Assembly: GCA_041308205.1 (NCBI GenBank)
Contig: JBFZCA010000003.1
Location: 1-31,086, forward strand
Origin: Planctomycetota bacterium
GTDB taxonomy: Bacteria; Planctomycetota; UBA8108; UBA8890; UBA8898
Direction: 5' to 3'
DNA length: 31,086 bases
Part shown: positions 10,221-29,366 of the stretch, one piece after another
How positions within the stretch are numbered: the first letter of the stretch is position 1
Layout of the letters: every line of letters starts with the position of its first letter
Notes under the pieces: generated by a model
The model's database searches: none
Told to the model about the DNA's origin: nothing
Seen by the model: only the letters and a program-made list of their open reading frames with translations
Program-made: the position numbers and the translations under genes

Positions 10221-10237
10221 GACGGGAGTTCGCGCAG

Positions 10238-12268: not shown

Positions 12269-12272
12269 TGCG

Positions 12273-14027: not shown

Positions 14028-14479
14028 GCCAGGACTTCGAACCGGTGATCGTCGGCTTCCTCTGCAACTGGTGCAGCTACACGGGCGCCGACCTGGCGGG
14101 CACATCGCGGAGCCGCTACCCGCCGAACCTGCGGATCATCCGCGTGATGTGCAGCGGCCGCGTGGAGCCGGCGTTCGTGCTCAAGGCGTTGCGGGAAGGC
14201 GCCGACGGCGTGCTCGTCGCCGGCTGCCACCCGGGCGACTGCCACTACCAGGAAGGCAACTACAAGACGATGCGCAGGATGGCGCTGCTCGGGCCGCTCC
14301 TCGATCAGTTCGGCATCGAGCGCGCGCGCGTGCGCCTGGAGTGGATCAGCGCGAGCGAGGCCGGCCGGTTCGTCGAGGTCGTGAAGGAGATGACGAGCCG
14401 CATCAAGGCGCTCGGGCCGCTGCGGCTCGGGCATGCGCAGGATGCCGAACCGATCGCGGAGAAGCTGGCGCCCGCGTGA
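14024..14479 (+). CDS. mvhD: MvhD/FlpD-type [2Fe-2S] adaptor subunit
   Basis: [41 protein letters not shown] overlap with the upstream gene. Confidence 0.93.
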
Positions 14480-14496
14480 GGGGGGAGGACAGTGCC

Positions 14497-15474
14497 GTGG
14501 GCAAACCCAAAGTCGCGTTCTACTGGTGTGCGAGCTGCGGCGGCTGCGAGGAGGCCGTGGTCGACCTTGCCGAGGGCATCCTCGAGGTCGTCGGCGCGGT
14601 CGACATCGTGCTGTGGCCGGTCGCGCTCGACTTCAAGCTCAAAGATGTCCACGCGCTCCCGGACGGCGCGATCGCCGCGAGCTTCATCAACGGATCGGTG
14701 CGCACCTCGGAGCAGAAGGAGTGGGTCGAGCTCCTGCGCCGGAAATCCGGCCTCGTCGTCGCGTTCGGGTCCTGCGCCCACATCGGGGGCGTGCCGGGCC
14801 TTGCCAATCTGTACGATCGCGCCGGCATCTTCGAGCGCGCCTACGACCTGGTGCCGACGGCAGACAACCCGGGCCGCGTGCACCCCCAGACCTCGACGAA
14901 GGTCGCCGAGGGCGAGCTCAGGCTTCCGGAGTTCTTCAACACGGTCAGGACGCTCGACCAGGTGATACCGGTCGACTACTACCTGCCGGGCTGCGCGCCG
15001 CCCCCGGATCTCATCTTGAACGCCGTGCAGGCGATTCTCGCCGGCACGCTGCCGCCGAAGGGCAGCGTGCTCGCGCCGGCCAAGGCGCTGTGCGACACCT
15101 GCCCGCTCAAGGAGTCCAAGCCCGAGAAGATGGCCATCAAGGAATTCAAGCGCATCGCGACGAGCGCGCCCGATCCCGCGGTCTGCTACCTGGCCCAGGG
15201 CTACGTGTGCCTGGGCCCGGCGACGCGGTCGGGGTGCGGAGAACGCTGCATCAAGGCCAACATGCCGTGCCGGGGGTGCTTCGGCCCGACGCCCGAAGCG
15301 ACCGACCTGGGCGCGAAGGCGCTGGGGGCGCTGGCATCGATGGTCGACACGAAGGACCCGGACGAAGCGGCGCGGATCATGGCGATGCTGCCCGACCCCG
15401 CGGGAGCCCTGTACATGTACGCGCTTCCCAGCTCCCTTTTGCAGCGCAAGAAGATGGAGGCGGCGCATGGCTAA
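14497..15474 (+). CDS. mvhG: Group 3c-type [NiFe]-hydrogenase small subunit
   Basis: WCASCGGC, AFGSCA, LPGCAPP, LCDTC, CLGPATRSGC, CRGCFGP. GGAGGA RBS before GTG 14497. Confidence 0.9.
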   Translation: MGKPKVAFYWCASCGGCEEAVVDLAEGILEVVGAVDIVLWPVALDFKLKDVHALPDGAIAASFINGSVRTSEQKEWVELLRRKSGLVVAFGSCAHIGGVPGLANLYDRAGIFERAYDLVPTADNPGRVHPQTSTKVAEGELRLPEFFNTVRTLDQVIPVDYYLPGCAPPPDLILNAVQAILAGTLPPKGSVLAPAKALCDTCPLKESKPEKMAIKEFKRIATSAPDPAVCYLAQGYVCLGPATRSGCGERCIKANMPCRGCFGPTPEATDLGAKALGALASMVDTKDPDEAARIMAMLPDPAGALYMYALPSSLLQRKKMEAAHG

Positions 15475-16927
15475 GCGCATCACGATCGATCCCGTCACGC
15501 GCCTCGAGGGCCACGGCAAGATCGAGATCTTCCTGGACGATGCCGGCAACGTGGCGAACGCCTACCTGCAGATCCCCGAGCTGCGGGGCTTCGAGAAGTT
15601 CGCGGAGGGGCGCCTCGTCGAGGACATGCCGCGCATCACGCCCAAGATCTGCGGCGTGTGCCCGACCGCCCACCATATGGCCTCGGGGAAGACCGTGGAC
15701 GCGGTGTACCACGTCGATCCGCCGCCCGCGGCGAAGAAGATCCGCGAGCTCATCAACTCGGCGTTCGCGGTCGAGGACCACACGCTGCACTTCTACTTCC
15801 TCGGCGGGCCCGATTTCGTCGTGGGGCCCGAGGCGCCGGCCGCCGAGCGGAACATCCTCGGCGTCATAGGCAAGGTCGGCGTCGAGGCCGCGACGAGGGT
15901 GATCGGCATTCGCCGCCGCCTGCGCGCGATCATCACGGCGCTCGGCGGCCGCGTCATTCACCCCGTGTGCAACGTCCCGGGGGGCGTGTCCAAGGGCGTC
16001 ACGAAGGAGATGCGCGAGGAGTTCATCGCGGCGGCCGAGGATGCGGTCGAGTTCGCGAAGTTCACGCTGGGGGTGTTCGGCAAGATCGTCCTCGCGAACA
16101 AGAGCTACGTCGACCTCGTCGTCGGCGACATCTACCTTCACCGCACGTACTACATGGGGCTCGTCGATGCGCAAAATCGCCTGAATCTGTACGACGGCAT
16201 GATCAGGGTCGTCACGCCGTCCGGCAAGGAATTCGCGAAGTTCCCGCCGAGCGAGTACGTCGAGCACATCGCCGAGCACGTCGAGCCCTGGAGCTACATC
16301 AAGTTTCCGTACCTCAAGAAGGTGGGGTGGAAGGGCTTCACGGACGGCGAGACGAGCGGCGTTTACCGGGTTGCGCCGCTCGCCAGGCTCAACGCCGCCG
16401 AGGGCATGGCGACGCCGGCCGCCCAGGAGGAGTACGAGCGCATGTACGCGACGCTCGGCGGGAAGCCCGCCCACAATACGCTCGCCTACCACTGGGCGCG
16501 CCTCGTCGAGCTCCTCTACGCCGCGGAGCGCCTGCGCGAGCTGGCGCGGGACGAGGAGATCCTCGATCCGCACATCCGCACGCTGCCGACCGCGACGCCG
16601 ACCGAGGGCGTGGGCGTCGTCGAGGCCCCGCGCGGGACCCTGTACCACCACTACAAGACCGACGAGCGCGGGGTCGTCACGGAGGCCAACCTCATCGTCG
16701 CGACCGTCAACAACTCGGCTGCGATCTCGATGTCGATCGCGCGCGCGGCCAGGAAGCTCATCACAAACGGCGAGGTCCGGGACGGCCTTCTCAACATGGT
16801 CGAGATGGCCTTCAGGGCCTACGACCCCTGCTTCGCGTGCGCGACGCACGCGGCGGGGCAGACGCCGCTCATCGTGACGGTGCGGGACGCGCGCGGCGCG
16901 CCCCTCCGGGTCCTCCGCAGGGACTGA
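15467..16927 (+). CDS. mvhA: Group 3c-type [NiFe]-hydrogenase large subunit
   Basis: TRLEGHG, L1 KICGVCPTAH, EAPRGTLYHHY, L2 RAYDPCFACATH followed by a 25-aa C-terminal extension. Adjacent to mvhDG and hdr genes. Confidence 0.93.
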   Translation: MAKRITIDPVTRLEGHGKIEIFLDDAGNVANAYLQIPELRGFEKFAEGRLVEDMPRITPKICGVCPTAHHMASGKTVDAVYHVDPPPAAKKIRELINSAFAVEDHTLHFYFLGGPDFVVGPEAPAAERNILGVIGKVGVEAATRVIGIRRRLRAIITALGGRVIHPVCNVPGGVSKGVTKEMREEFIAAAEDAVEFAKFTLGVFGKIVLANKSYVDLVVGDIYLHRTYYMGLVDAQNRLNLYDGMIRVVTPSGKEFAKFPPSEYVEHIAEHVEPWSYIKFPYLKKVGWKGFTDGETSGVYRVAPLARLNAAEGMATPAAQEEYERMYATLGGKPAHNTLAYHWARLVELLYAAERLRELARDEEILDPHIRTLPTATPTEGVGVVEAPRGTLYHHYKTDERGVVTEANLIVATVNNSAAISMSIARAARKLITNGEVRDGLLNMVEMAFRAYDPCFACATHAAGQTPLIVTVRDARGAPLRVLRRD

Positions 16928-16991
16928 GCGCGGCGCGCCGCCTCAGCAGCCGGGAAGCCGATCCTTCGTGAACTCGAATCCCGCCTCGGGG
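16884..16991. repeat. 108-bp direct repeat, left copy
   Basis: 107/108 identical to 23654-23761; the single difference is 16909 G vs 23679 C. Confidence 0.97.
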
Positions 16992-17104
16992 CAGGGGGGC
17001 CGGTATGCTCACGCGGCCCCGCGCCACACGCGCGCCCGCACACACGCCGCGCGGGATGTGCACGGGCTCGCGCGCGGCGCTTCGAGAGCTCCCGCGCCTC
17101 TCGT

Positions 17105-17133
17105 TTGACAGCCGGAATGCTCGCGATTAGGAT
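17105..17133 (+). promoter_or_regulatory. Sigma-70 promoter for the giant gene
   Basis: TTGACA (17105-17110), 17-nt spacer, TAGGAT (17128-17133). Confidence 0.6.
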
Positions 17134-17280
17134 CGTGGATGACAAGGACGCGAACGAGATTCCCTGCCCGCAGAAGGCGCGCCGCTCAGGCCTGATTCAC
17201 GCAGGCAGCGCGCGATTCCCTGCGACTTTCGCCTCGGCTGTCCATGCGGGCAGGACGCGCCAGGCAAGGAGGGCTTCCCG

Positions 17281-20200
17281 ATGCGCATCTTCCCCTCGCC
17301 AGCACCGTTCCTTCTCTTCGTGCTTCTGGCACTCATCACGGCGTTGCAGGCTTGGGGGGCCGAACCTCAAAGCCGTTCCGTCGCCGAGTGGGCGGCGGAG
17401 TTGCGGGCGCCGAATCCGAAAGTCCGCTCGAATGCGGCGACGGCGATAGGGCGCATGGGGCCTGCCGCGGCGCAGGCGGTCCCCGACCTGGCCGCTGCCC
17501 TCGGTGACGCCGATACGGAGGTCCAGGCGAATGCCGCGTGGGCGCTGGCGCAGATGGGCAAGGAGGCCAAGTCCGCGGTTCCCGCCCTGGAGAAGGCTCT
17601 GGGAGACGCCAACTGGCAGGTGCGGGGCCGGGCGGCGGTGGCGCTCGGAGCGCTGGGAACGGAAGCCGGCGCCGCTCGAGAGGCGCTCCGGCGAGCGCTC
17701 AATGACGGCAATGCAAACGTTCGGGCTGCCGCGGCCGGCGCGCTCTGGTCGGTCACCGGCGACGCGACCGAGCCGCTTCCCGCCCTGAAAGGGCTGCTCT
17801 CGAATCCGGACGCGCATACTCGCAGACAGGCCGCTCAGGCGCTCGCCAGAGTGGGCCCGCCTGCCGCCGTTCTCGCGCCCCAGTTGATTGCCAAGCTGGA
17901 CGACTCCGACTCCGGCGTTCGCCTGGCCGCTGCCAGGGCGCTGATGCCGGTCGGCCGGGAGAACGCGGCCGTGCGGGACGCGCTCGAGAAGCGCTTGGCC
18001 GTGGAGAGGGAACCGGTGGTGCGCGAGGCGATGGCCTCGACGCTCGATCAGCTTCGGAAGGAGCCGGCCTCCGGGCCGGCGGGGCGGCACGCGGAACCGC
18101 GCGAGGCGACGGGCGTCGGCCCCGCCGCCGGAAAAGAAGAGGCCGCCGGCGCTCCTGAGCCTGCCGCCGCGACGGCCGGCGCACCTGCGGAGCCAACCGC
18201 GAAGGCCGGGCAGCCCTCCGGCGGCGGCGCGCCGGGCGCCGAGCCCGCCGGCGCAAGCCCGCCTCGATCGGCCGATGCCGAAGGCGGGGCGGAGGCGCGT
18301 CCTGCGGCAAAGGCGCCCGCGGCTCCACGACAGCGACCGCCCGAGCCGGCGTACGAAGGCAGAACCCTCACCGAGTGGATTGTCCGGCTGGACGGCAAGG
18401 ATGTCGGCGAGCGTCGCTTGGCGTGCGTGGCGCTGGGGGAGATCGGCCCTCCGGCCCGGCCGGCCGTCGGACCGCTCAACCGATTGCGCCTCTATGATAC
18501 GCACGACATGGTGCGGCACCAGGCCGCCTATGCCCTGGCGAGGATACTCGGCGTGGCGTTGGGAGACATGCTGCCCAGACCGCCTGCGCCGGCCAAAGGC
18601 GCCGGCGAGAGCGCGGGACCTCCCCCGGAAGGCCGGATCTTCTACCTGTTCGGAGTGCACTCCGTCTCGGAGAAGGGGGTGGAACCGCGCCCCGATCTGA
18701 CGCGCAGAGACACCACCTACAGGCAGTTCCTGTTCGGCTTCACCAACGGGGCGCTCAACTACCTCGATCTTGCGGAAGCCCACAAGTACCGGGAGGACGC
18801 GCGCACGCGCGGCCTGAACGTCGCTCTACCGCTTCCCGAACTGCTCAAGTCGGAGCCGGAGGCGGAGCGGGACCGGATTCGCAAGGAGTACACGTTCTTC
18901 TACAAGTACAAGAAGGATTATATCGTCCGCATCACCTGCAACCGGCAGACCCGTTACGCCTACTACCGCTGGATCGGAGACGAGTACGACTCGTACGGGA
19001 GCGGATCGCACTGGGCCATGACGCCGGGCAGGTATGTCGCCGAGATCACGGTCTGGGTGCGCGACGGTTTCCGCCTGGACTACGAGGCTCCCTTCACCTG
19101 CACGTCCGACGTCTACACCGCCGGCGGAGATCACCTGCAGGCGGCCAAGGCTCACGGCCCGCAGGATCTCGCCGGGGAAGAGCGTGAATACGAGGCCTCC
19201 ATCACGCCGGGAAACACCGACTACAGCCGCCGGATGTTCCCGGGAAGGAAAGCAGGAGCGACCAAGAGGATCGGCGAGAGGATCGCCGGATTGCTCTCGA
19301 AGCTCGCCAATTGCCAGCCGATGATGCCCGACGAGATCTTGCCGTACATCCGCGAATCGCTTGTCTTCTACGACAAGGCCGCGCGCATCGACCCCGCGGC
19401 GCACAAAACCAGGGCCGGTGACCTGAGCATGCTCGTCGATGTGTGCGCCATGGCGGCCTCGCGCGATACGTACGCCATGGCCATCCGGCTCATCGGCATG
19501 CTGGAGAAGGTGATGGCCGACCCGGAGTCGAAGAGCTCCCAGGCGGAGCTGCGAAACGCCCACCATGATCGGGCGGTCTGTTACATGAAACTCGCGGATC
19601 TGGCGTTGACCTATCAGATGGACATTCCCGCCTCCCTCCGGTTCCGGATCGAGGCGTTGCGATACAAGGAGCTGGCCGACGGGACCTTCGGCGACGTGCT
19701 GCGCTCGATGGATGTCGAGAAGAAGATGACCGAGTGGCCGCAGCCGGACTGGTGGAATCCGGCCTGGGACGAGCGGCAGCCGCCGGTCCCCGCGGAGCTG
19801 ACCGAGGAAGGGGAGGGCAAGGGGGAAGAGGCGGCTGAACCGCGGGAGAACGCGGAGCAGGAAGTTGCGGTTGTGAACGCGCAAGAGCTCGAGGAAGCCG
19901 TCGCCGAGGTGGACGAGGAGCGCGCCGAACAGGTGTCGTGGCTCATTCAATTGCGGGGGCAGATGACCAGCGCCAACGCGGAGCTGGGCGCGGCTCTCGC
20001 CAAGCTGGTCGCTCTCCACCGCGCGCTGCTCGCGGTCGAGCAGAAGATGAGCTACTTCGGGAAGCTGCTGGGCGAGGCCTCGGCGCGTCCCGACGATGCA
20101 GACTGGTTCGAGGAGCAGATCTTCAACGCCATCAGGAACAGCGAGGCGATCCGGGACGATCTGGCGGGGCAGGCGCGCGGCGGCGCGGAGGCGATGCGGG

Positions 20201-23200
20201 CGGTCCTGAAGAAGATCGTGGACGATCTGTCGAAACGGCAGGCCGAGCTCGAGGGGGAACGCACCGCGATCATTCAGGACGCGATGCTGAACTACGCGAG
20301 CATCGCCCAATCGCTGGAGAAGCGAGGCCCGCAGTGCTCGGAGCCCGCGATGCGGGAGGTCGCGGAGAACACGCTGCACAGCGTGCGCACGATCATGGCG
20401 CTGCGCAAGGCGGAGCTCTACACGGCGGCCGGCATGGGCGACGAGTTCCGGGTGGCGGCGCGCGAATGCATCGAGGCGGGCGGCGAAGCCTTCGACTATC
20501 AGGTCCGCCTCATGGAATCGGCGCACATGGAGTCGCAGGGGAAGCTGAGCCTGGCCCTGAAAGCGGCCAGGCTCGCGCTGGACGCGCGAAAGGAATCCGC
20601 CGAACCGCCCCGCAAGAAGCTCGCGGATGGAACGGAAGTGCGCGTGCCGACGCCGGCGCAGGCGCTCGTCAAGCGGCTGGAGCTGGACGCGCTGGAGGCG
20701 ATCACGGCCAAGACCGCCCGGGACTCGACCATGGTCCGCAAGATGTGCGAGCAGCAGATCGGCGTGCACGGCGATCGCGGGGTCACGGGGTTCGCCTACG
20801 ACGTGCTCTTCATGGGGCGGTTCATCAGCGCCGTGGGCGACAACAATCTCGTCGACTCCTTCCACAGTTGGATCACCGGCCCGGCGGGGCGGCCTTTCTG
20901 GGGCACTCCGATCGAGAAGGAGGAGACGCTGGCCGGCAAGCCGGAAAGCCAGTCGCGCGAGATGGGCTTCGTTCTGGACGACGCCACGCGCACCACGTTG
21001 GGATTGAACATGATCCGCAAGCTGCGCGAGCACGATGTCCCGTTCTCGAAGATCGGAAGCATGAGCGCGGCGGAGTTCCGCCGCGTGGTGGCAGAGACCC
21101 TGGGCCGGGAGCCGCTGGGAGAACGGTGGAAGAGTCTGACGGACGCGCAGGTTTCCACGATGCGTTCGGAGCTCCATTTCGCAATGCAGCAAGCCGACGT
21201 GGAGCGGTTGATGGAGGGCAAGTCCCAGGTCCTCGATCTGGAAAGCGGCAAGAGCTACTACGATACCGAATCGTTCACCGGCAACTGGCGCGACGCCGTG
21301 GAGGACCAGGTGAACGTCGCCAACCTGCTCCTGTTTGCGCTGCCCAACGCCCAGGTGGCGCGGGCGGGCCGTCAGGTGGGCCTGCTCAAGTGGGCCGGCC
21401 CTGCGGCGGGGGGAGGCGAGTCCGTCGCGCTCAAGCAGGCCTTCTCCGAGGCCATCGGCGTGGGTCGCGGCCTGAAGTGGATCAGCGAGCACAAGCTCGG
21501 GGGCCGGATCGTGGCCGATCTGGTGGACACCCACTCCCGCATGTCATGGTTCGGCCAGGCCATGACGGATTCCATGATCCAGAGCGACGTGACGCAGATG
21601 GCGAGATACGGAACCGAATATGTGGTGGGCCGGCTCGGGTACGACGAGGTGACGCAGGAGAAGGCGGGACGCGTGGCGGAGGTTCTGACCCAGATCGGCA
21701 CATCGTTCGCAGGGGACTTGGACGTCACGGTCGGAATCGCCCGGGACGTCCTCAATCCTGCGCAGGCCCGCGTCATCGGGGAGTCCCTCGCCGGAGCGCT
21801 CAAGAGCGCCGACGAAATGGCGGAGATCGCGGAGTCGCACCAGCGCATCCTGCGGAAAGCGCTGGCGGAAACGGACGGCGGGCGGATCACGCCCGAGAAT
21901 CAACGCCTGGTGAAGGCCGCGGCCGAAGGGCTCGAGGAGCAGATGGACTCGCTGCGCAAGGCTCTGCCCGAGGCCGGCAGCGCGCACCCCATCGTCAACG
22001 AGCACTATGACCGGCTTCAGGCGCTCTTCGATGGGCTTCAGGGCGCGGCGGACGGAATGGCGTCGGATGCGAAGCGGTTCAGCGCCTTTGCGGAGGATCT
22101 GGCCGAGAGACTCGCCGAGAGTCGGACCTCGCTCGTCAGGCAGATCAGCGTCGTTCAAGGAGCGGGCAAGCCCCTGGCCACGAAGCAGGACCTGGCCGGG
22201 AGGCCCCTCTTCAACGACGATGTGGACTTCCGCACGCCGTCCGCCCTGCCCATCGCGGACGAGCTTGCGCAGAAGGGGCAGTACACGCAGGCCTCCAAGC
22301 TCTATGAGGCCGGGTACTACGTGTACGACGAGCTGGGGATGTCGAACAACCCGGCGGCGCAGATTCTGGCGAAACGATGGCGCCTCGCAAAGCAACTGGA
22401 CCAGGCGCAGGACTTCTTCGCCCGGATGAGAGCCAATCCCGATCCGAACCTCGCCATGGCGCGGCCGATCAGCGAGGCGGAGCTCGAGAACATGCGGAAG
22501 TCGCCGGATTTCCGGCTTGTGCCCATCGGCAAGGGGGCCTCGACTCCCTACTGGGTGGAGATCGCGGGCACGCGCGCCGGCGTCTTCAAACCGGCGCGCG
22601 CGGACTTCCCGTTCGGGCGGGAGGCCGAGAGGATTGGCGCGAACTTCGCGAAGGAGCTCGACATTCCCGCGGCCGCCGCCGCCCGAACGACCATGCCTCT
22701 GGAGCAGGACATGCAGGGCGCATTCGCGAGATACTTCGAGGCGGCTGAAGCGCAGGGCCTGGAATGGCGCAGGACCGTGGACGACCTGTTGCAGCTCAAG
22801 TCGAAGGGGAAGCTGGAATTCGTACCCGTGGGCGCCGAAGCGCCCGACACTTTCTGGGCGGTGTCGGAGGGCAGGCGCGTCGGCCTCTTCACGCCGGAAT
22901 ACGCCCGGTTGCCGCAGGGCACGAGCGCCCAGGATCTGTTCGAGCGCATCGCCAAGGCGAGCGGGGGTGAAGTCCTCGAGACGGTGCCGACGACAATGCG
23001 CATGAAGGAGGCGGACGGCGTCTTCGTGCGGTTCATCGAGGGGCAGGACCTCATCAATTTCACGGACGCGGAGCGGATCGTGCTGAAGCGCGAGGTCGCC
23101 AAGGACTGGGTGTTGAGACTGCTCATCGGCGACTATGACGCGCATGCGCTCAATTTCAAAGTGGCGCCGAACGCAGAGGTCATCCCGCTGGATCGCAACC

Positions 23201-23652
23201 TGGCCGACATTCTGGAGATACGCGAAGGGATGCTGCAAAGGGTCCTGGGCACGTCGGCCCTTTCGACCAACCCACCGGAGATGCAGATCGAGATCGAGAA
23301 GCTGATGCGCGCCCGGTTGCAGATCCTGTGCGGCCGGGTGGGCGGGAACAACCGCCACTATCAATGCATGGGCCGCATCGCGGAGCAGATGACGTACGAG
23401 GATTTCAAGGGTGCGGTGGAGAAGGTGCAGAAATGGGATCGTGATTTCCTGCGGAAACAGGTGGGTGACGCCATGGGCGGTGATACCGAGCGGGCGCTGG
23501 ACGTCCTGGAAGCGAGAGTGCGTTGCATGAAGAAGGTGCTGGAAGCGCTTCCGGAGGTCATGACGGAACCGGTGACGTCGTTCCTGCCCCGCTGCATCAG
23601 ATGGCCGGTGGCGTTGCGGTCGCCGGAGGAGGTGCGCCTGCTGGCGGCATAG
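17281..23652 (+). CDS. 2123-aa secreted protein: signal peptide, HEAT repeats, Pro/Ala linker, helical/coiled-coil core, C-terminal PI3/PI4K- or HipA-like kinase domain
   Basis: Hydrophobic signal ending in ALQAWG; VRxxAAxALG HEAT units; GVFKP (K1770), RE/AE, LLIGDYDAHALNF (D1953, H1955, N1958) and IPLDRNLA (D1971). Confidence 0.8.
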   Translation: MRIFPSPAPFLLFVLLALITALQAWGAEPQSRSVAEWAAELRAPNPKVRSNAATAIGRMGPAAAQAVPDLAAALGDADTEVQANAAWALAQMGKEAKSAVPALEKALGDANWQVRGRAAVALGALGTEAGAAREALRRALNDGNANVRAAAAGALWSVTGDATEPLPALKGLLSNPDAHTRRQAAQALARVGPPAAVLAPQLIAKLDDSDSGVRLAAARALMPVGRENAAVRDALEKRLAVEREPVVREAMASTLDQLRKEPASGPAGRHAEPREATGVGPAAGKEEAAGAPEPAAATAGAPAEPTAKAGQPSGGGAPGAEPAGASPPRSADAEGGAEARPAAKAPAAPRQRPPEPAYEGRTLTEWIVRLDGKDVGERRLACVALGEIGPPARPAVGPLNRLRLYDTHDMVRHQAAYALARILGVALGDMLPRPPAPAKGAGESAGPPPEGRIFYLFGVHSVSEKGVEPRPDLTRRDTTYRQFLFGFTNGALNYLDLAEAHKYREDARTRGLNVALPLPELLKSEPEAERDRIRKEYTFFYKYKKDYIVRITCNRQTRYAYYRWIGDEYDSYGSGSHWAMTPGRYVAEITVWVRDGFRLDYEAPFTCTSDVYTAGGDHLQAAKAHGPQDLAGEEREYEASITPGNTDYSRRMFPGRKAGATKRIGERIAGLLSKLANCQPMMPDEILPYIRESLVFYDKAARIDPAAHKTRAGDLSMLVDVCAMAASRDTYAMAIRLIGMLEKVMADPESKSSQAELRNAHHDRAVCYMKLADLALTYQMDIPASLRFRIEALRYKELADGTFGDVLRSMDVEKKMTEWPQPDWWNPAWDERQPPVPAELTEEGEGKGEEAAEPRENAEQEVAVVNAQELEEAVAEVDEERAEQVSWLIQLRGQMTSANAELGAALAKLVALHRALLAVEQKMSYFGKLLGEASARPDDADWFEEQIFNAIRNSEAIRDDLAGQARGGAEAMRAVLKKIVDDLSKRQAELEGERTAIIQDAMLNYASIAQSLEKRGPQCSEPAMREVAENTLHSVRTIMALRKAELYTAAGMGDEFRVAARECIEAGGEAFDYQVRLMESAHMESQGKLSLALKAARLALDARKESAEPPRKKLADGTEVRVPTPAQALVKRLELDALEAITAKTARDSTMVRKMCEQQIGVHGDRGVTGFAYDVLFMGRFISAVGDNNLVDSFHSWITGPAGRPFWGTPIEKEETLAGKPESQSREMGFVLDDATRTTLGLNMIRKLREHDVPFSKIGSMSAAEFRRVVAETLGREPLGERWKSLTDAQVSTMRSELHFAMQQADVERLMEGKSQVLDLESGKSYYDTESFTGNWRDAVEDQVNVANLLLFALPNAQVARAGRQVGLLKWAGPAAGGGESVALKQAFSEAIGVGRGLKWISEHKLGGRIVADLVDTHSRMSWFGQAMTDSMIQSDVTQMARYGTEYVVGRLGYDEVTQEKAGRVAEVLTQIGTSFAGDLDVTVGIARDVLNPAQARVIGESLAGALKSADEMAEIAESHQRILRKALAETDGGRITPENQRLVKAAAEGLEEQMDSLRKALPEAGSAHPIVNEHYDRLQALFDGLQGAADGMASDAKRFSAFAEDLAERLAESRTSLVRQISVVQGAGKPLATKQDLAGRPLFNDDVDFRTPSALPIADELAQKGQYTQASKLYEAGYYVYDELGMSNNPAAQILAKRWRLAKQLDQAQDFFARMRANPDPNLAMARPISEAELENMRKSPDFRLVPIGKGASTPYWVEIAGTRAGVFKPARADFPFGREAERIGANFAKELDIPAAAAARTTMPLEQDMQGAFARYFEAAEAQGLEWRRTVDDLLQLKSKGKLEFVPVGAEAPDTFWAVSEGRRVGLFTPEYARLPQGTSAQDLFERIAKASGGEVLETVPTTMRMKEADGVFVRFIEGQDLINFTDAERIVLKREVAKDWVLRLLIGDYDAHALNFKVAPNAEVIPLDRNLADILEIREGMLQRVLGTSALSTNPPEMQIEIEKLMRARLQILCGRVGGNNRHYQCMGRIAEQMTYEDFKGAVEKVQKWDRDFLRKQVGDAMGGDTERALDVLEARVRCMKKVLEALPEVMTEPVTSFLPRCIRWPVALRSPEEVRLLAA

Positions 23653-23653
23653 G

Positions 23654-23761
23654 GGGACGCGCGCGGCGCGCCCCTCCGCGTCCTCCGCAGGGACTGAGCG
23701 CGGCGCGCCGCCTCAGCAGCCGGGAAGCCGATCCTTCGTGAACTCGAATCCCGCCTCGGGG
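23654..23761. repeat. 108-bp direct repeat, right copy
   Basis: Contains an orphan copy of the last 14 mvhA codons and the true 3' end of the ELWxxDGT gene. Confidence 0.97.
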
Positions 23762-26700
23762 TGCGGAGGCCGCGGGGGAGGCCCGTTGACGAAGAGGAAG
23801 CTCAGGAGCCAGATCGGATCGGCGATGTCCACGGCGCCGTCGTCGTTGACGTCGAGCGCGTCGGCGCAGGCGGCCGTTGTGGTCTGGCCGGCGAACAGGT
23901 GGTTCAGGATGCTGATCGGATCGGCGATGTCGATCGCGCCGTCCTCGTTCACGTTGCCGCGCACGAACACGCTTTCGCTGTCCGGCAGCGGCACCGCCCA
24001 GAGGCGCGGCGGGCCGCCGGCGCTCTCGCTCACCCAGTAGTAGAGGAGGTCGCCGACCATGATCGGCTCGGAGCGGGGCTTGTTCATGAACTCGCAGAAG
24101 CTCGAGGCCACGGCGGGATCGGTGTCGTGGGCGACGTACATGCCGCCGCGCGTCCGCGAGCTCTGGAAAAGCCCGAGCGGCTTGGTCAGGAACGCGCGCC
24201 TTTCGGCCCCGAAAAGATCCGGAGCCCCGTAGCCGCTCGCAGGCGGCGCATACACGAGGCTCTCCGTATCCTCCGCCGCGCCGTCCGCCATCCAGACGTC
24301 GCCCTGGATTCCGGAGGCGCCGTCCGTGCTCACGAAGTAGAAGCGGCCGCCGCCGAGGACTCCCCGCATCACCGACTTGGCGCTCACGCGCATCGTGCCT
24401 TCCGCCGTGCCGTCCGTGACCCAGGGATGGATGCCGACCTCGAAGAAGCAGCGCCCTTCCGCGGCGCCGTAGAGACGGGGCCCGAGCTGGAACACGCCGA
24501 GATCGCGCACGAAGCGCGCGCCTCCGCACGTTCCGTCGAGACTCCAGAGCGCGTCGCCGTCGATCCCGGCGCGCTCGCCGATGCACAGCAGGCGGTCGTT
24601 CAGCACGACGAACGGCTTGGGGCAGGACGCCAGCTCCTCGAGACCGTCGCTGCAGACGCGGCGGGTTCCATCGACGGTGCCATCCGTCTGCCACAGGCAG
24701 CCGGAGGGGGACGCATCTCCGACGCCCGCCCAGAAGAAGAGGAGATCCCCGAGCCGCACCCACACCTGCGGCCAGGAGGAATCCGCGCCCTCCGCCAGGT
24801 CGAGGAACAGACGCGTGCCCTCGACCGTGCCGTCGGTCACCCACAGCTCCGTGCCGTGAACGCCGTCGTTGCCCGAGAAGTAGAAGCGGCCGTTCAGTTC
24901 CATGCCGTGCCACAGGGAGACGAACGGCGTCGCCGGCGTGAAGGTCCGTAGGAGCCGCGTTCCCGCGGCCGTGCCATCGGTGATCCAGAGCTCGTTGCGC
25001 GCCGATGCGATGTCGGGGAGGAAGAGCTCGAGGTCGCCAAGCGTGCCGAAGCGCGTGATCGCCGCGCTGCCCGGCGCCGCGGGTCTGTCCGCGAGAAGCG
25101 CGGCGTCCCCGTCCGTCCCGTCGCTCGCCCACAGCTCCTCGCCGTGCTCGCCGTCGTCGGCGCTGAAGAGCACTCGCGTCCCGCACGGTCGCAACGCGGC
25201 GGGCATCGAGCCCTCGGCGCCCGGGCGGATGTCCGCGCAGAGGCGCGTGCCGGTCGCCGTGCCGTCGGTCACGTACGGCTCGCTTCCGGTTTCGTCCGCG
25301 TACGCGCGGAAGAAGAGCCGTCCGTCGGGCGCCGCGCACCATTCGGGGTTCTCGACCGGCGTGGCGTCGAGATCCGCGAGGATCGCCGTCCCCTCCGCGG
25401 TGCCGTCGCTCGTCCACGGCTCGCTGCCGTGGACGCCGTCGTCGGCCCACACGACGACGCCGTTGCGCCCCTCGCGAAAGTCCCGCGCGGACGATCCTCC
25501 CGACCCGGGGCGTACGTCGCGGACGAGCCGCGTTCCCGCCGCCGTGCCATCGGTCGTCCACGGCTCGGCGCCGTGTGCCGCATCCTCCGCGACGAAGACC
25601 AGAAAGCCCGGCGCTCCGAACGACGCGCAGGTCGTCCCCGGGCGTGTCGAGAAGAGCGCGAGATCGGCGATCATGCGAAGCCCCGCGGGAGTCCCATCGG
25701 TCGCCCACAGCTCCGTTCTGTCCGGGACGGCTCGAACGGCAAGGACGAGCTCGCCGGCCAGCGTGCCCAGGACGCAGGGAGAGGAGCCCTCGCCGCCCGC
25801 GCGGAAATCGCGCAGAAGGAACGTCTGCTCGGGCGTGCCATCGGTCGCCCACGGCTCGCGCCCGCTCGCGCCGTCATCGGCGAAAAACACGGCGCTCGCG
25901 CCGGCGGTTGCGAAATCGGCGGGCATGGAGCCGTATGTGCCGGGCTTGACATCGGCGAGCATCACCGTGCCCTCGGGCGTGCCGTCGCTCACCCAGGGCT
26001 CCAGGCCGTGTGTCGCGTCCCAGCCGTTGAAAACCAGCCGATCCCCGACCGCGGCATGCTCGCGCATCACGGCGGTGCACGGGGAGGTGTCGGACGGCGT
26101 GGGCAGGAACTCCCGCACGAGACGCGTGCCGTCGGCCGTGCCGTCGGTCACCCAGAGGCCGATGCCGGCGCAGAAGGGCGCGACCGCCCCGGGCACGAAG
26201 AGCATGCGTCCCGGGGCCGCGATCGCCGCGCGCTCCTCGTCGATCGCCGTGATGTCGTCGCGCAGGCGGCGCGTGCCCTCGGGCGTGCCGTCGGTCGCCC
26301 ACAGCCCTCCGGCCACGAACACGACCCGGTCGCCGAGATCGAACATGGGGCCGAACGGCGAGCCCACCGCGGCCAGCATGCGCGTGCCGTCCGGCGAGCC
26401 ATCGCTCGACCACAGCTCCCGTGTGCCGTCGGCGGCCTGGCTGAAGAAGAACAGGCGTCCCGGCGCGGCGAGGAGCGGAGAGGAGTACACGCCTTCCTTG
26501 AGCGTGACGGCGCCTTCCTCGGTCCAGTCCGTGAGGAGGAGGTCGCCGAAGTCGGTCACGACCGCCGTGCGGTCACCGAACGGCACGGCCGCCGCGGGAT
26601 ACGAGACGGGGTACAACTGGAGCTCCCTCGTGCCGCCGGCCGTGCCATCGGTGAGGAAGAACCTGCCCGAAGCGGCCAGGAACACGTCGCCCGCGGTTGT

Positions 26701-26877
26701 CGTCACGGCCAGGGAGAGGTTCGATGACCCGGTGTTCCCCTCGAGGACATCGCTTACCTGGTAGGGAGTCGCGGCGCCGGCGAGGGCTCCGGCGGCCAGG
26801 AGAGCACACACGCGCGCGCAGGCGATCCCGCGTGTCCGGACCCGATTGCTGCGAGTGGCTTGGCAATGGTCTTGCAT
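23713..26877 (-). CDS. ELWxxDGT-repeat secreted protein with C-terminal dockerin-type-I-like domain
   Basis: About 17 (E)(L/P)WxxDGTxxGT repeats. Tail VRGNVNEDGAIDIADP...DVNDDGAVDIADP. Start chosen at ATG 26877 (GGAGG 5 nt upstream); ATG 26889 is an alternative. Confidence 0.88.
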   Translation of the reverse strand: MQDHCQATRSNRVRTRGIACARVCALLAAGALAGAATPYQVSDVLEGNTGSSNLSLAVTTTAGDVFLAASGRFFLTDGTAGGTRELQLYPVSYPAAAVPFGDRTAVVTDFGDLLLTDWTEEGAVTLKEGVYSSPLLAAPGRLFFFSQAADGTRELWSSDGSPDGTRMLAAVGSPFGPMFDLGDRVVFVAGGLWATDGTPEGTRRLRDDITAIDEERAAIAAPGRMLFVPGAVAPFCAGIGLWVTDGTADGTRLVREFLPTPSDTSPCTAVMREHAAVGDRLVFNGWDATHGLEPWVSDGTPEGTVMLADVKPGTYGSMPADFATAGASAVFFADDGASGREPWATDGTPEQTFLLRDFRAGGEGSSPCVLGTLAGELVLAVRAVPDRTELWATDGTPAGLRMIADLALFSTRPGTTCASFGAPGFLVFVAEDAAHGAEPWTTDGTAAGTRLVRDVRPGSGGSSARDFREGRNGVVVWADDGVHGSEPWTSDGTAEGTAILADLDATPVENPEWCAAPDGRLFFRAYADETGSEPYVTDGTATGTRLCADIRPGAEGSMPAALRPCGTRVLFSADDGEHGEELWASDGTDGDAALLADRPAAPGSAAITRFGTLGDLELFLPDIASARNELWITDGTAAGTRLLRTFTPATPFVSLWHGMELNGRFYFSGNDGVHGTELWVTDGTVEGTRLFLDLAEGADSSWPQVWVRLGDLLFFWAGVGDASPSGCLWQTDGTVDGTRRVCSDGLEELASCPKPFVVLNDRLLCIGERAGIDGDALWSLDGTCGGARFVRDLGVFQLGPRLYGAAEGRCFFEVGIHPWVTDGTAEGTMRVSAKSVMRGVLGGGRFYFVSTDGASGIQGDVWMADGAAEDTESLVYAPPASGYGAPDLFGAERRAFLTKPLGLFQSSRTRGGMYVAHDTDPAVASSFCEFMNKPRSEPIMVGDLLYYWVSESAGGPPRLWAVPLPDSESVFVRGNVNEDGAIDIADPISILNHLFAGQTTTAACADALDVNDDGAVDIADPIWLLSFLFVNGPPPRPPHPEAGFEFTKDRLPGC

Positions 26878-27073
26878 CAGCGCCTCCATTCCTGATCGAC
26901 CGGCTCGATACGTTCCATTGTAGGCGGGGCGTGAATGAAAGACAAGCAAGAAACTGCGGGCGCACGCGCCGGCGCCGCGCGGAGCCGCCGCCGCGGACGG
27001 CGCTTTCTCGAGGGTTCCGCTGCCGCTATACTGAAAGGCGAGGTTGCCCGTCCCCGGCGGAAAGGCATGCACG

Positions 27074-28525
27074 ATGGTTGCGTTCGTTCTCGCTCTCGGC
27101 ACGCTCGTCCTGGGCGGCGAGGCGCCGCGCATCGATCTCGCCGACTGGCCCGTCCGGATCGGCGGCGAGGCGCAGCTCTTCGCCGACGACTTTCTCGTCG
27201 CCCGCGGCGAGCGCATCGAGTACGCGCTCCACCGGCCCGAGAAGCATCCCGCGAATCCGCTCGTGACGCCCGCGCCGTCCGTGGAGCGGCTCGTCCTTGC
27301 CTATGGCTCGGTCATCCGGGAGAAGGAGGGCGGCCCGTTCCGTCTCTGGTACACGAACGACACGGGCATCGCCTACGCGGAGAGCGCCGATGGAGTGCGC
27401 TGGGAGAAGCCCGCCGTGGGAATCGCACGCGACGGCCGGCCGACGAACATCCTGACGCGCGGGCATCGCGGCCGCTCCGACACCCTGACCGTGTTCCTGA
27501 ACCCGGATGCGTCCGACATCGAGCGGAAGTACCTCGCGTACGTCTTCGAGTACCGCTTCCCCGACCGCGACGGCGTGCGCGAGGAGCGGCGCGAGGGGCT
27601 CTACCTGCGCGCGTCGCCCGACGGGATCGCGTGGCGCGAGCGGCCGGAGCCGGTCATGTACAGCATGTGGCGGAACCCCGCCGACCGGCCCGCGGGGACC
27701 GAGGGCGACCTGGGCGATGTCCACCACGTGAGCTGGGATCCCAAGCTCGGGAAGTTCATGGGGCACGTCAAGCTCTCGCTCGGCGGCGTCCGGAAGCGCG
27801 GCCTGACCGAGAGCGACGACGGGATCCACTGGTCGCACCCGCGCCTCATCCTCGAGGCGGACGAGCGCGACCGACCCGGCGACCAGACGTACTCGATGAT
27901 CGCGTTCCCGTACGAGAGCGTGTGGCTCGCCTACGTCGGCCTGTATCACAAGGGGACCGATGACCGGATGGACATCCAGCTCGCCGTGAGCCGCGACGGG
28001 CGGAACTGGTCGCGGCCGCTGCGCGGCGCGTTCCTCGCCAACGGGCCGGCCGGCGCCTTCGACTGGGGCGTTCTCCACATGGCGGCCAATCCTCCCATTC
28101 GCGTCGGAGATGCGCTGTGGATCTACTACGGGGGCTACGACACCGTGCACGGGACGAAGCTTCCCGACGTGCGGCAGTTCGGCATCGGGCTCTCGATGCT
28201 CAGGCCGGACGGCTTCGTGTCCGTGGACGCGCGGGGGACGCCGGGATCGCTCGTGACGCGGCCGCTCTGCTTCGAGGGCGGGAAGCTCGCCGTGAACGCA
28301 TCGATCGGCGCGGGCGGGTCGCTCGCGGTCGCCGTGCTCGACCGCTCCTACCGCCCCCTCGAAGGCTACCGGCGCGAAGACTGCGCGCCGCTCTCGGGCG
28401 ACGGGCTCGGGCTGCCCGTGCGCTGGAAGACAACGAACACGCTCCCGCCCGCCGGCGAGGAGCGCCACGTGCGCCTCCAGTTCTTCCTGGCCGACGCGTC
28501 GCTCTACTCCTTCCGCATCGAGTGA
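27074..28525 (+). CDS. Secreted five-bladed beta-propeller glycoside-hydrolase-like protein (GH32/GH43 clan-like)
   Basis: Signal peptide, LFADDF, KHPANP, FRLWY, AESADGVRWEKP, SDDGIHWS, QLAVSRDGRNW, LRPDGFVS. The family call is pattern-based. Confidence 0.55.
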   Translation: MVAFVLALGTLVLGGEAPRIDLADWPVRIGGEAQLFADDFLVARGERIEYALHRPEKHPANPLVTPAPSVERLVLAYGSVIREKEGGPFRLWYTNDTGIAYAESADGVRWEKPAVGIARDGRPTNILTRGHRGRSDTLTVFLNPDASDIERKYLAYVFEYRFPDRDGVREERREGLYLRASPDGIAWRERPEPVMYSMWRNPADRPAGTEGDLGDVHHVSWDPKLGKFMGHVKLSLGGVRKRGLTESDDGIHWSHPRLILEADERDRPGDQTYSMIAFPYESVWLAYVGLYHKGTDDRMDIQLAVSRDGRNWSRPLRGAFLANGPAGAFDWGVLHMAANPPIRVGDALWIYYGGYDTVHGTKLPDVRQFGIGLSMLRPDGFVSVDARGTPGSLVTRPLCFEGGKLAVNASIGAGGSLAVAVLDRSYRPLEGYRREDCAPLSGDGLGLPVRWKTTNTLPPAGEERHVRLQFFLADASLYSFRIE

Positions 28526-28550
28526 GGGAACCATGCGACATCTCGGCGAC

Positions 28551-28577
28551 AAATCAGTGACTGTCCCCGGATTCCCC
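28551..28577. repeat. Possible REP-like half element (…GTGACTGTCCCCGGATTCCCC)
   Basis: Resembles GGGGACAGTCAC-type interspersed repeats recalled from other genomes. Single copy here. Confidence 0.25.
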
Positions 28578-28607
28578 TGACGCACGGCTGGCCTGCCGTG
28601 ATGCTCC

Positions 28608-28639: not shown

Positions 28640-28684
28640 GTGGGCGTGGAGCACGCCGCACGAGCGTGTGCCGGGAGGCTTGGG

Positions 28685-29002
28685 ATGCAGCGGCCTGTCG
28701 AGACGAAAGAGGAGGTGCTGGAGGCGCTCCGAGGAGCGCGGCAGGCGCTTCGAGAACTCGGCGTGCGACGCCTGGGACTCTTCGGTTCTTTCGCCCGCGG
28801 CGAGAGCTCCCGCGACAGCGACGTCGATCTGCTCGTGGAATTCGAGCCGGGCCGGAAGACGTTCGATCGCTTCATGGACGTGGCGTTCCTGCTCGAAGCG
28901 GTCTTGCGGCGGCGCGTCGAGATGGTCACGCCTGAATCGCTCAGCCCCTACATAGGCCCTCATATCCTTCGGGAGATCGAGTATGTCCCTGTCGCCGCTT
29001 GA
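28685..29002 (+). CDS. mntA: Minimal nucleotidyltransferase (MNT) antitoxin
   Basis: [24 protein letters not shown] (GSxARG...DxD). GGGAGG RBS. Confidence 0.9.
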
Positions 29003-29366
29003 GTACCTGCGGCATGTGCTCGATGAGGCAGATTACCTGTGCCGAGAGGCGACGTGCTTGACCAGGGCGCAGTTCCTTGCCGACGACAGGGCCAAGCGTG
29101 CGTTCGTGCGGAGTCTCGAGATCATCGGCGAGGCGGTGAAGAAGGTTCCCCAGGACCTGCGGTCTCGATACCCGGAGATTGCCTGGCGCGCCATGGCGGG
29201 GATGCGCGACAAGGTGATCCACGACTACTTCGGAGTCGACTGCGAAATCGTCTGGGACGCTGCCGCAACAAAGGTGCCCGTGCTGCAGAAACAGATCCGG
29301 ACGCTTTTGGCTCGAGAGGAACCGCCGGCCCTCAGAGGCTCCAGCCCCGGCGGTATTCCCACCTGA
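28983..29366 (+). CDS. hepT: HEPN (DUF86) RNase toxin
   Basis: [32 protein letters not shown] (R-x4-H). Overlaps mntA. Confidence 0.9.

Follow-up and report, generated by a model that had tools for sequence, protein, structure and literature searches.

A 6.66-kb single-gene insert flanked by direct repeats of two convergent gene ends in a planctomycete, a probable insertion with long target duplication

How can a large gene come to lie between two convergent genes, leave both of them complete, and yet bring no recombinase with it? This question is raised by a single metagenomic contig from a Planctomycetota bacterium (31,086 nt, analysed in its entirety and called the window below), in which a 6.66-kb insert separates mvhA, a gene for a [NiFe] hydrogenase large subunit, from a gene whose product carries ELWxxDGT repeats (ELW gene). 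We consider the structure probably a genuine recombinase-free insertion with long target duplication. As the route by which it arose, we tentatively prefer a single crossover of the Campbell type.

The most distinctive feature of the locus is a pair of 108-bp direct repeats, identical on alignment at 107 positions and spaced 6770 bp from start to start. This pair is the sole long two-copy repeat of the window, and the remaining repeat families (ELW repeat units and Fe-S cluster motifs) are confined to single genes. Each copy begins at the second base of mvhA codon 473, spans about 14 codons and the TGA stop, crosses the spacer between the two stops, and closes with 49 nt (16943-16991 in the left copy) that read on the reverse strand as 15 codons (PEAGFEFTKDRLPGC) and the stop of the ELW gene. 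Since the 108 bp straddling the spacer are present on each side of the insert, the reading frames of both neighbours are complete: the left copy finishes mvhA and the right copy finishes the ELW gene. The only mismatch, G at 16909 and C at 23679, is a synonymous third-position change in an Arg codon (CGG/CGC). A sequence-only reading of this DNA had described flanking repeats built from two convergent gene ends, their anatomy, the lone silent mismatch and the completion of both genes, and our coordinates agree with it throughout. The axis of the spacer palindrome has 50 nt of repeat to its left and 58 nt to its right, no more than 4 nt from the repeat centre, and on folding its hairpin is not more stable than that of shuffled sequence.

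Table 1. Features of the locus, in coordinates of the window.
Feature	Position	Strand	Basis or remark
mvhA-like group 3c [NiFe] hydrogenase large subunit, 486 aa	15467..16927	+	Pfam NiFeSe_Hases; NCBIfam VhuA
Left repeat copy	16884..16991		Functional mvhA tail, 15-bp spacer, orphan 49-nt ELW-gene tail
Inter-stop spacer, 15 bp (GCGCGGCGCGCCGCC)	16928..16942; second copy 23698-23712		Contains palindrome GCGGCGCGCCGC
Strain-specific block	16934..27536		blastn of window against L004-L007; 1.1-kb DUF6922/AbiEii module there in relatives
Cargo upstream region, 289 bp	16992..17280	+	GC-rich stem-loop at left edge (16996-17020); promoter-like site 17105-17133
Cargo ORF, 2123 aa	17281..23652	+	Pfam HEAT_2; TAG stop 1 nt from right repeat
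Right repeat copy	23654..23761		Orphan mvhA tail, spacer, functional ELW-gene tail
ELWxxDGT-repeat gene, call of 1054 aa	23713..26877 (ORF reaches 27216)	-	TIGR04534, 11 repeats, E 9e-141
493-aa gene of unknown function	27044..28525	+	Relatives hold a 133-bp internal remnant only
MNT (nucleotidyltransferase)/HepT toxin-antitoxin pair	28685..29366	+	First block common to relatives again
GFO_IDH_MocA oxidoreductase	29332-30675	-	Next after MNT/HepT

The neighbour on the left ends an hdrCBA-nuoEF-like-mvhDGA cluster. Its best NCBIfam match is VhuA (E 9e-125, under the equivalog cut-off), its C-terminus at residues 441-461 is VhuU-like, and its product is 98% identical in amino acid sequence to P0105; given the VhuA match and the hdr-mvhDGA cluster, mvhA appears to be a fair name for it. 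[NiFe] large subunits mature by cleavage after the His of DPCxxCxxH, which corresponds to H461 in this predicted product, and the duplicated mvhA part would accordingly encode only putative propeptide, as the sequence-only reading had proposed. The 25-aa tail is conserved among relatives. The ELW gene is convergent to both mvhA and the cargo gene, and its protein has a dockerin-like C-terminus (a weak Dockerin_1 match). No homologue of it above 37% identity, and no orthologue, was present in the collections searched.

The insert itself (16992-23653, 6662 bp) consists of 289 bp of upstream DNA and one ORF. The upstream DNA opens with a stem-loop of -14 kcal/mol whose advantage over shuffled sequence is modest (z -1.7), and includes a promoter-like TTGACA-17-TAGGAT that matches at 10 of 12 positions, where 0.3 such sites are expected in the region. 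The description of the cargo as a promoter and one gene, with its stop 1 nt short of the right repeat, was borne out, the promoter being a predicted site. The predicted protein begins with a signal-peptide-like segment, carries HEAT repeats at residues ~40-260 and ~360-425, and continues through a low-complexity linker into a long uncharacterised region. A C-terminal module of ~230 aa contains a PI3K/PI4K-like catalytic-loop motif (G1950-D-x-D-x-H-x-x-N1958 ... D1971-R-N), and a profile of this module matches PI3K/PI4K catalytic loops only, at E ~0.02. HEAT repeats are the only domains that Pfam, NCBIfam and PADLOC report in the insert, and neither a nuclease nor a methyltransferase domain was found in the cargo by Pfam, PADLOC and profile searches.

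Is the cargo gene a long-standing resident of this locus? Among 1.84 billion representatives it has 81 matches, and across all collections searched no relative exceeds 37% identity. That value belongs to P0002, the lone full-length homologue, to which the ORF aligns as far as the final residues (..LAA and stop), indicating that it is of full length. The relatives lie in unrelated contexts and without flanking repeats, a survey that the sequence-only reading had proposed, and the cargo gene is thus not tied to the mvhA locus. Its codon-usage distance from the host pool is 0.090 against an expected 0.033 +/- 0.006 (z = 10; GC3 0.86), a significance that owes something to gene length; once sampling noise is allowed for, a few host genes (a sulfatase and hdrC) show an excess of similar size. 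By the same measure, the ELW gene (z 0.7) and the 493-aa gene (z -0.1) resemble the host pool. This pattern fits the addition of the cargo to a resident mvhA-ELW junction.

The earlier description of the insert as integrase-less also proved correct. Searches that included Pfam and NCBIfam revealed no integrase, transposase, tRNA or RNA family anywhere in the contig, no recombinase gene lies in the 10-kb flanks of four related contigs, and within the element we found no genes for integration or transfer. Terminal inverted repeats are likewise missing from the insert: its ends were compared by eye, and no reported inverted pair joins them.

Comparison with the closest relatives, whose flanks are ~95-96% identical on the left and ~96% or more on the right, reveals that the region is strain-specific. 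These relatives lack the cargo, the ELW gene and with it the ELW half of the repeat, and carry a DUF6922/AbiEii pair after mvhA instead. Homology to them stops at 16933/16934, inside the palindrome GCGGCGCGCCGC, and resumes at 28606; in between, only window positions 27537-27669 persist, as a 133-bp remnant that is 99% identical. Because this remnant is an internal piece of the 493-aa gene, the relatives must have lost DNA there. No repeat flanks their AbiE module, whose other end falls inside the deleted gene; the module is a substitution or deletion rather than a clean site-specific insertion. More distant relatives have a different gene downstream of mvhA in each case, and by this comparison the predicted ELW gene is not a conserved mvhA neighbour.

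The same comparison dates the duplication. The two copies of the repeat differ by 0.9%, as opposed to ~4-5% between the flanks and the sister lineage, so the duplication is younger than the split from that lineage, or else the copies have been homogenised by gene conversion. The mvhA part of the right copy matches the relatives' mvhA tail at every position (100%), including the C at the mismatch site. Conversely, the G at 16909 in the resident mvhA is a private allele, preceded within 27 nt by three further private changes. The sister-lineage C in the orphan tail weakly suggests a junction that might have been imported from another strain, with the crossover to the right of the mismatch, but a single later synonymous mutation in mvhA would explain the difference equally well.

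How might such a structure form by host functions alone? When a suicide vector integrates by a single crossover, the homologous segment is duplicated around the insert, the target genes stay intact if that segment spans their ends, and the event is reversible by RecA. The locus resembles such a product: the shared segment flanks the insert at either end, and the target genes are intact. By the route that we tentatively prefer, a circular, non-replicating DNA of 6770 bp carrying one copy of the mvhA-ELW junction would have recombined once with the chromosomal junction of an empty ancestor, and the resulting repeats would allow RecA to release the unit as a circle or to amplify it in tandem. In E. 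coli, the shortest homology that RecA recombines efficiently, studied by Shen and Huang in 1986, is reportedly below 108 bp. Integration of non-replicating circles in this manner is familiar mainly from the laboratory or from plasmids.

This proposal, which the sequence-only reading had also made, fared unevenly. A duplicative insertion that preserves both convergent genes stands. Neither the empty mvhA-ELW junction nor the 6770-bp circle that the proposal implies appeared, however: none of the collections searched contains an empty site, a circle junction or a second copy, and searches of metagenome, genome and viral collections with the junction 28-mer gave no match. This counts against the Campbell route, as does the prior event required to produce a circle that already bears the 108-bp junction (50 nt from mvhA, 58 nt from the ELW gene), which makes a single event in place more parsimonious. 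In addition, a crossover anywhere within the 108 bp predicts neither the near-central palindrome nor the break inside that palindrome in the relatives.

These objections lend some weight to a second account, which we nonetheless judge rather unlikely, wherein the duplication was made during repair of a broken chromosome, with neither a circle nor an earlier copy of the junction. The inter-stop palindrome would have suffered a double-strand break, followed by copying from the sister chromosome, the left end acquiring the ELW tail and the right end the mvhA tail (a few tens of nucleotides). The extended ends would then have been ligated not to one another but to a captured 6.66-kb fragment; a replication template switch would have an equivalent outcome. 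This account agrees with the sequence as well as the Campbell route does, and better with the near-central palindrome and with the break inside it in the relatives. One event suffices, which makes this the most parsimonious explanation for a structure seen once, and it accommodates the position of the palindrome within the repeat. The sister-lineage rearrangement breaks in the palindrome as well, suggesting a recurrent break site, but that position is partly forced, because a replacement that spares mvhA must begin after its stop. Similarly, the 12 nt just past the right boundary of each repeat (16992-17003 and 23762-23773) match at 8 positions and could represent junction microhomology, although such a match is marginal in sequence of 70-90% GC (estimated p ~0.01-0.06). 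DNA breakage is suspected in the literature on long target duplications (PMC2853133), but outcomes of the kind required here are documented mainly in eukaryotes. Moreover, a 12-bp palindrome that folds no better than shuffled sequence is short for breakage by way of a hairpin or cruciform, and a captured fragment that happens to run from a terminator-like hairpin to 1 nt past a stop would be a coincidence.

An improbable alternative is that the repeats are attL and attR, acted on by a recombinase whose gene lies at another place in the genome or on a helper element, such that the insert would be a CIME-like or satellite element with the palindrome as its core site. An integrase classically leaves direct repeats that restore the 3' end of its target gene, and an imperfect inverted repeat (CTGAGCGCG-N5-CCGCCTCAG) resides near the middle of the identity segment. 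Furthermore, CIMEs by definition have lost their integration and transfer genes and kept attL and attR (PMC6323972). Against this stands the lack of any recombinase gene in the contig or the related flanks, and an integration within the spacer would disrupt neither gene, so that there would be no need for 50 + 58 bp of coding identity. The DUF6922/AbiEii module of the relatives does begin at the same point, but its one-sided, repeat-free structure is not that of an att-flanked element, and three collections contain no further occurrence of the junction sequence.

Finally, it is very improbable that the contig mis-states the arrangement, the assembler having picked one path through a 108-bp repeat node that in reality joins an empty junction and a separate 6770-bp circle, a collapsed tandem array or mixed strains: although the strain has been assembled once, as one metagenomic contig, and the 82 identical bp after the mismatch keep short k-mers from pairing entrance with exit, the joints of ELW tail to cargo upstream DNA and of cargo stop to mvhA tail are needed on any path, so a duplication or permutation is real; the mismatch indicates that the copies are not collapsed, the left and right flanks fall in the same divergence class relative to the sister lineage, which argues against a chimera with it, and a 6.8-kb circle lacking a replication gene is implausible as a stable replicon.

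Whatever its origin, the near-identical repeat pair is a usable substrate for homologous recombination, and on this point the suggestion that the insert could be excised or amplified by RecA holds. The repeats predict appreciable loss or amplification of a giant, predicted secreted HEAT/PI3K-like protein within the population, and hence a variable trait. A further reading, quite improbable, takes the 6770-bp unit to be a mobile cassette of one gene, free of any recombinase, that carries its own target copy and cycles between circle and chromosome through host recombination alone. It would then follow the 'virus-like life cycle' that has been proposed for restriction-modification units with long target duplications, but with a cargo unable to cut DNA. 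In that case, this mode of mobility would be independent of restriction-induced breaks and would operate in Planctomycetes with non-cutting cargo. Should the unit move, a poorly understood recombinase-free route of gene gain and loss would extend to non-restriction cargo and to an uncultured Planctomycete, and the locus would offer a clean natural substrate of one gene and one 108-bp repeat. By a related reading, the short palindrome between convergent stops might be a programmed insertion hotspot. At present the locus is a single instance on one metagenomic contig, and thus a well-documented example rather than a discovery.

Several known classes of insert can be set aside. An integrase-mediated island or prophage is rejected for want of a tyrosine or serine recombinase in the window or the flanks of related contigs, and a DNA transposon or insertion sequence because there are no inverted ends (by eye) and no transposase, and the duplication is 108 bp rather than less than ~15 bp. 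An integron gene cassette is excluded by the lack of attC-type RYYYAAC/GTTRRRY boxes and of an integrase, by a fold not beyond that of shuffled sequence, and by a repeat that is mvhA/ELW coding sequence. Heterocyst elements, including the hupL element with xisC, have short repeats, interrupt the gene in which they lie and carry a recombinase gene themselves (PMC4874684). The hupL element is similar in that direct repeats bracket DNA at a [NiFe] hydrogenase large-subunit gene, but here mvhA is complete and no recombinase is present.

Two further systems share part of the architecture. The minimal mobile elements described for Neisseria (Saunders and Snyder, 2002; via PMC3787668) are exchanged through double crossovers in the flanking genes and lack a flanking duplication. 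The interval 16934-28605 likewise varies between conserved mvhA and MNT/HepT-GFO in close relatives, with DUF6922/AbiEii there and the cargo, ELW gene and 493-aa gene in the window, but a concept that involves no flanking duplication leaves the 108-bp repeat unexplained. CIMEs (ICEberg 2.0, PMC6323972) resemble the insert in their direct-repeat flanks, their lack of integration and transfer genes and their movability in trans. However, CIME repeats are att sites of a known ICE/IME family with a cognate integrase, whereas this repeat is ordinary coding sequence of two host genes. It has no known ICE/IME family, cognate integrase or second att-like copy, and it occurs nowhere else in the collections.

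The closest match is insertion with long target duplication, described by Nobusato et al. 2000 (Gene 259:99) and by Furuta, Abe and Kobayashi 2010 (PMC2853133). Units of this kind are under 20 kb, have no mobility genes and are bounded by direct repeats of the target that exceed 30 bp (the tabulated cases have 45-423 bp) and overlap the 3' ends of flanking genes; they have been seen to amplify through these repeats, and single genes are among them, such as an mcrA homologue (PMC2853133). Non-RM DNAs are mentioned as well (PMC3457768). Published cases are defined by a genome with the single-copy empty site, whereas the insert described here is known without one. It further differs from most of them in that its cargo is a predicted secreted HEAT-repeat/PI3K-like giant and not a restriction-modification system, and from the published cases in that its target spans two convergent gene ends and its host is a Planctomycete. 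With 6662 bp, one ORF, no mobility genes, and 108-bp repeats over the 3' ends of the flanking genes, the insert matches in structure what has already been described under this name.

The 6662-bp insert downstream of mvhA is bracketed by two 108-bp direct repeats, which by repeat scan and alignment are 107/108 identical and lie 6770 bp apart. Each copy consists of the mvhA tail, a short palindromic spacer and the tail of the convergent ELWxxDGT-repeat gene (the ELW gene). The left copy supplies the end of mvhA and the right copy that of the ELW gene, and the sole mismatch (16909 G, 23679 C) is synonymous, falling on the third base of an Arg codon. The sequence-only reading had described the locus in these terms, and had also described an integrase-less insert with a single cargo gene that stops against the right repeat. 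This description proved accurate in every detail that could be checked in the window, which is one entire contig (P0001, 31086 bp).

Features of the mvhA-ELW locus and its surroundings (positions in the window)
Feature	Position	Strand	Detail
Truncated BrnT toxin fragment	4117-4224		Pfam positions 1-27 of 77
DUF433 fragment	4816-4965
37-nt inverted repeat pair	5264-5300 / 5446-5482		86% complementary
hdr-mvh cluster	7195-16927
HdrA, N-terminal part	8885-9760
NuoE-like gene	9738-10220		between HdrA halves
NuoF-like gene	to 12268		between HdrA halves
HdrA, C-terminal part	12234-14027		fused to 2Fe-2S domain
mvhA ORF	15467-16927	+
108-bp repeat, left copy	16884-16991
Repeat part 1		+	last ~14 codons of mvhA and TGA
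Repeat part 2			15-bp spacer GCGCGGCGCGCCGCC, holds palindrome GCGGCGCGCCGC
Repeat part 3		-	ELW gene stop and last 15 codons (PEAGFEFTKDRLPGC, then stop)
10-mer GCGGCGCGCC	16893-16902, 16930-16941, 17176-17185, 18224-18233		plus right-repeat copies
Insert, left part			289 bp
GC-rich stem-loop	16996-17020		left edge of insert
Promoter-like TTGACA-17-TAGGAT	17105-17133		motif match
Cargo ORF	17281-23652		TAG stop 1 nt from right repeat copy
108-bp repeat, right copy	23654-23761
ELW gene	23713-26877	-
493-aa gene	27044-28525	+
Interior matched by relatives' 133-bp fragment	27537-27669
MNT/HepT toxin-antitoxin pair	28685-29366

The 108-bp sequence is the only long repeat with two copies in the 31-kb window, all other repeat families (144-bp ELW repeat units and Fe-S cluster motifs) being internal to one gene each. 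Beyond the 108 bp, homology is at chance level on the left side and marginal on the right (8/12 matches). An attC-like (integron) or terminator-like structure was rejected because the repeat folds no better than shuffled sequence. The contig holds no integrase, transposase, tRNA target or structured RNA family. The insert ends show no inverted repeats by eye, and no reported inverted pair joins them. Xer/dif-type integration was likewise rejected, since no dif-like 28-mer is seen by eye and GC skew does not change sign in the window. The repeat copies differ by 0.9%, as against 4-5% in the flanks between this contig and its sister lineage, so the duplication is probably young, or the copies could have been kept alike by gene conversion. 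As a separate observation, the window has 10 occurrences of the 10-mer GCGGCGCGCC, in which the 8-bp palindrome GGCGCGCC is embedded, against an expected 3.0 +/- 2.1. The two repeat copies account for six of them, with the 10-mer occurring twice in each repeat at a distance of 37 bp, and the insert for another two.

The resident gene mvhA encodes a Mvh/Vhu-like hydrogenase large subunit (group 3c; NCBIfam VhuA, E 9e-125) and stands at the end of the cluster hdrC-hdrB-hdrA(N)-nuoE-like-nuoF-like-hdrA(C)/2Fe-2S-mvhD-mvhG-mvhA. Its VhuU-like stretch ends at H461 of DPCFACATH, and the 25 residues that follow, conserved in relatives, would presumably be the C-terminal extension that is cleaved on maturation, as known for [NiFe] large subunits. 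Across the repeat, the ELW gene has 11 repeats of TIGR04534 (E 9e-141), and its C-terminus is weakly dockerin-like. HdrA is split in two in this cluster, an arrangement common to all relatives examined.

The 2123-aa cargo protein begins with a signal-peptide-like N-terminus, followed by HEAT repeats (Pfam) and a Pro/Ala-rich linker, and ~1700 of its residues have no match in Pfam, NCBIfam, PADLOC or PDB sequences. We rejected assignment to a known defence system, because defence-system models match only the generic HEAT model. An exhaustive HMMER search with residues 1101-2123 shows the family to be rare (81 proteins among 1.84 billion representatives), and most matches are 1200-1850 aa long with N-terminal HEAT repeats. 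The cargo ORF is complete, since the only full-length homologue found aligns throughout (37% identity), to the common last residues LAA and stop. Within the C-terminal module (residues ~1840-2100), the motif G-D-x-D-x-H-x-x-N ... D-(R/H) is invariant, and in the PDB a profile of the module finds nothing but PI3K/PI4K, at the catalytic loop and DFG region (E ~0.02), with the top ~50 matches all of this kind. Because of this motif and these matches, we call the cargo a predicted secreted HEAT-repeat protein with a PI3K/PI4K-like putative kinase module. An AlphaFold model of the C-terminus, built on a two-sequence alignment, was set aside for its low quality (pLDDT 44). The module is also found alone in proteins of 230-500 aa, and the cargo family is without a Pfam model.

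Under a length-aware null with pooled host genes as reference, cargo codon usage departs from the host pool (distance 0.090 versus 0.033 +/- 0.006; GC3 0.86), an excess similar in size to that of a few host genes. The ELW gene and the 493-aa gene that follows it are host-like. Atypical usage in the cargo, while the ELW gene is host-like, fits a scenario in which a resident mvhA-ELW junction received the cargo later.

The locus in relatives bears on this history. The closest MvhA relative (98% aa) is found on contigs of four sources, one of them "Planctomycetes bacterium" GCA_003452155.1 and the others ENA ERZ27315071, SRR6485749 and JGI 3300002703. These contigs match window 5553-16933 at ~95-96% identity and 28606-30788 at ~96%. 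Between the shared blocks they carry only a DUF6922/AbiEii toxin-antitoxin pair (1.1 kb), without flanking repeats, and a 133-bp fragment 99% identical to the interior of the 493-aa gene; the cargo and the ELW gene are both absent from them. In two of these contigs (L004 and L005) the region compared is 11468-12739, versus window 16934-28605 with cargo, ELW gene and 493-aa gene. Homology on the left stops at 16933/16934, six bases past the mvhA stop and within the spacer palindrome. The 133-bp remnant shows that the closest relatives have lost DNA here. Its identity exceeds that of the flanks (~96%), a hint that this strain-variable spot following mvhA underwent a recent exchange and then deletion. 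Among more distant relatives (MvhA 79-81%) a different gene follows mvhA in each (pntA, cyclase/kinase, peptidase S9, PIN toxin pair, unknown gene), so the end of the hdr-mvh operon adjoins a variable region. An ancestral cargo at this position was rejected because seven mvhA relatives (79-98% identity) have other genes downstream. The orphan mvhA tail in the right copy is identical to the relatives' allele, and the resident mvhA has a private G and, within the 27 nt that precede it, a further three private changes.

Several other features of the surroundings were observed. Codon usage is atypical in the MNT/HepT pair adjoining the variable block (z 4.1 and 2.6; GC3 0.76-0.79), and the identity of the pair to relatives (~98.5%) exceeds the flank average. 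Closely spaced convergent gene ends turn up repeatedly near these genes: a convergent pterin-4a gene lies 4 nt beyond a cargo homologue (L011 7741-7745), and convergent peptidase or PIN genes come after mvhA (L040 7458-7540; L042 5171-5243), with no duplication at any of these ends. At 3950-5550 the window is low in GC (~0.61) and without intact genes; this stretch resembles toxin-antitoxin loci in decay, perhaps accompanied by a small hairpin element.

Public collections were searched for an unoccupied junction, a circular form and further copies of the unit. Exact-protein look-ups of the mvhA and cargo products yielded no record, and a junction 28-mer had 0 matches in metagenome, species-representative genome and viral collections. 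Among 5.8 billion proteins, no relative of the ELW protein or of the cargo exceeds 37% identity, and homology search returned no ELW orthologue. A scan of species-representative genomes found no member of the cargo family, and a scan of metagenomes found only distant fragments without a link to mvhA or ELW. The two cargo homologues whose surroundings are available sit among unrelated genes and have no flanking repeats; for these two, flanking repeats as a family trait were rejected.

The earlier interpretation survives in part: the event appears duplicative, preserves both neighbours and involves no integrase in the contig, but the ELW gene is not a conserved neighbour of mvhA, being missing from the closest relatives and replaced by different genes in the others. 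A circular form and mobility of the unit are what we infer. If M and E denote the gene bodies, m and e their tails and C the cargo, the product reads M-m-e-C-m-e-E, which needs either a target duplicated at insertion or an incoming circle already with m-e. We tentatively place first a Campbell-type event, in which a circle carrying m-e would recombine with the chromosomal mvhA-ELW junction by one crossover, using host enzymes of homologous recombination; this would need only known bacterial enzymology. The minimal efficient recombination length in E. coli, reportedly determined by Shen and Huang in 1986, is below 108 bp. Such a crossover would also fit the cargo's atypical codon usage beside a host-like ELW gene, and the relatives' allele in the orphan mvhA tail.

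We regard as rather unlikely a duplication in place at a break in the palindrome, with both ends extended past the break on the sister copy and joined to a captured fragment, or with a template switch. One event would be enough, and it would explain why the two edges of the repeat are 50 nt (left) and 58 nt (right) away from the palindrome axis, and why the break site is shared in the relatives. A recombinase acting in trans, in CIME-like fashion (PMC6323972), seems improbable. Least credible of all is an assembly path choice that misrepresents either a collapsed array or a chromosome with the empty junction accompanied by a circle. Whichever biological model holds, the Campbell-type crossover included, RecA could now use the two 108-bp copies to delete or amplify the gene.

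Among known systems, we tested the defining features of integrase islands, transposons, integron cassettes and the heterocyst-type hupL element (PMC4874684), and rejected each as the locus lacks them. The "insertion with long target duplication" is a class that Nobusato et al. (2000) defined by comparing genomes and that Furuta et al. (2010; PMC2853133) later surveyed. It consists of units <20 kb without mobility genes, flanked by target duplications >30 bp (45-423 bp) that sometimes overlap the 3' ends of neighbour genes. Its mechanism is described as unknown, with a break suspected, and its repeats permit amplification (PMC2853133). Most published cargos are restriction-modification systems, with "other DNAs" mentioned in PMC3457768, and the cargo is sometimes one gene, mcrA (PMC2993543). 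The present locus shows the structural features of this class and, judged by sequence, would join it as a single instance on one contig. It differs in its cargo, its host phylum and a target that spans two convergent gene ends; published cases rest on an empty-site genome, and none was found for this locus in the collections searched. In its behaviour the wider block (16934-28605) resembles a "minimal mobile element" as the term is used for Neisseria (PMC3787668).
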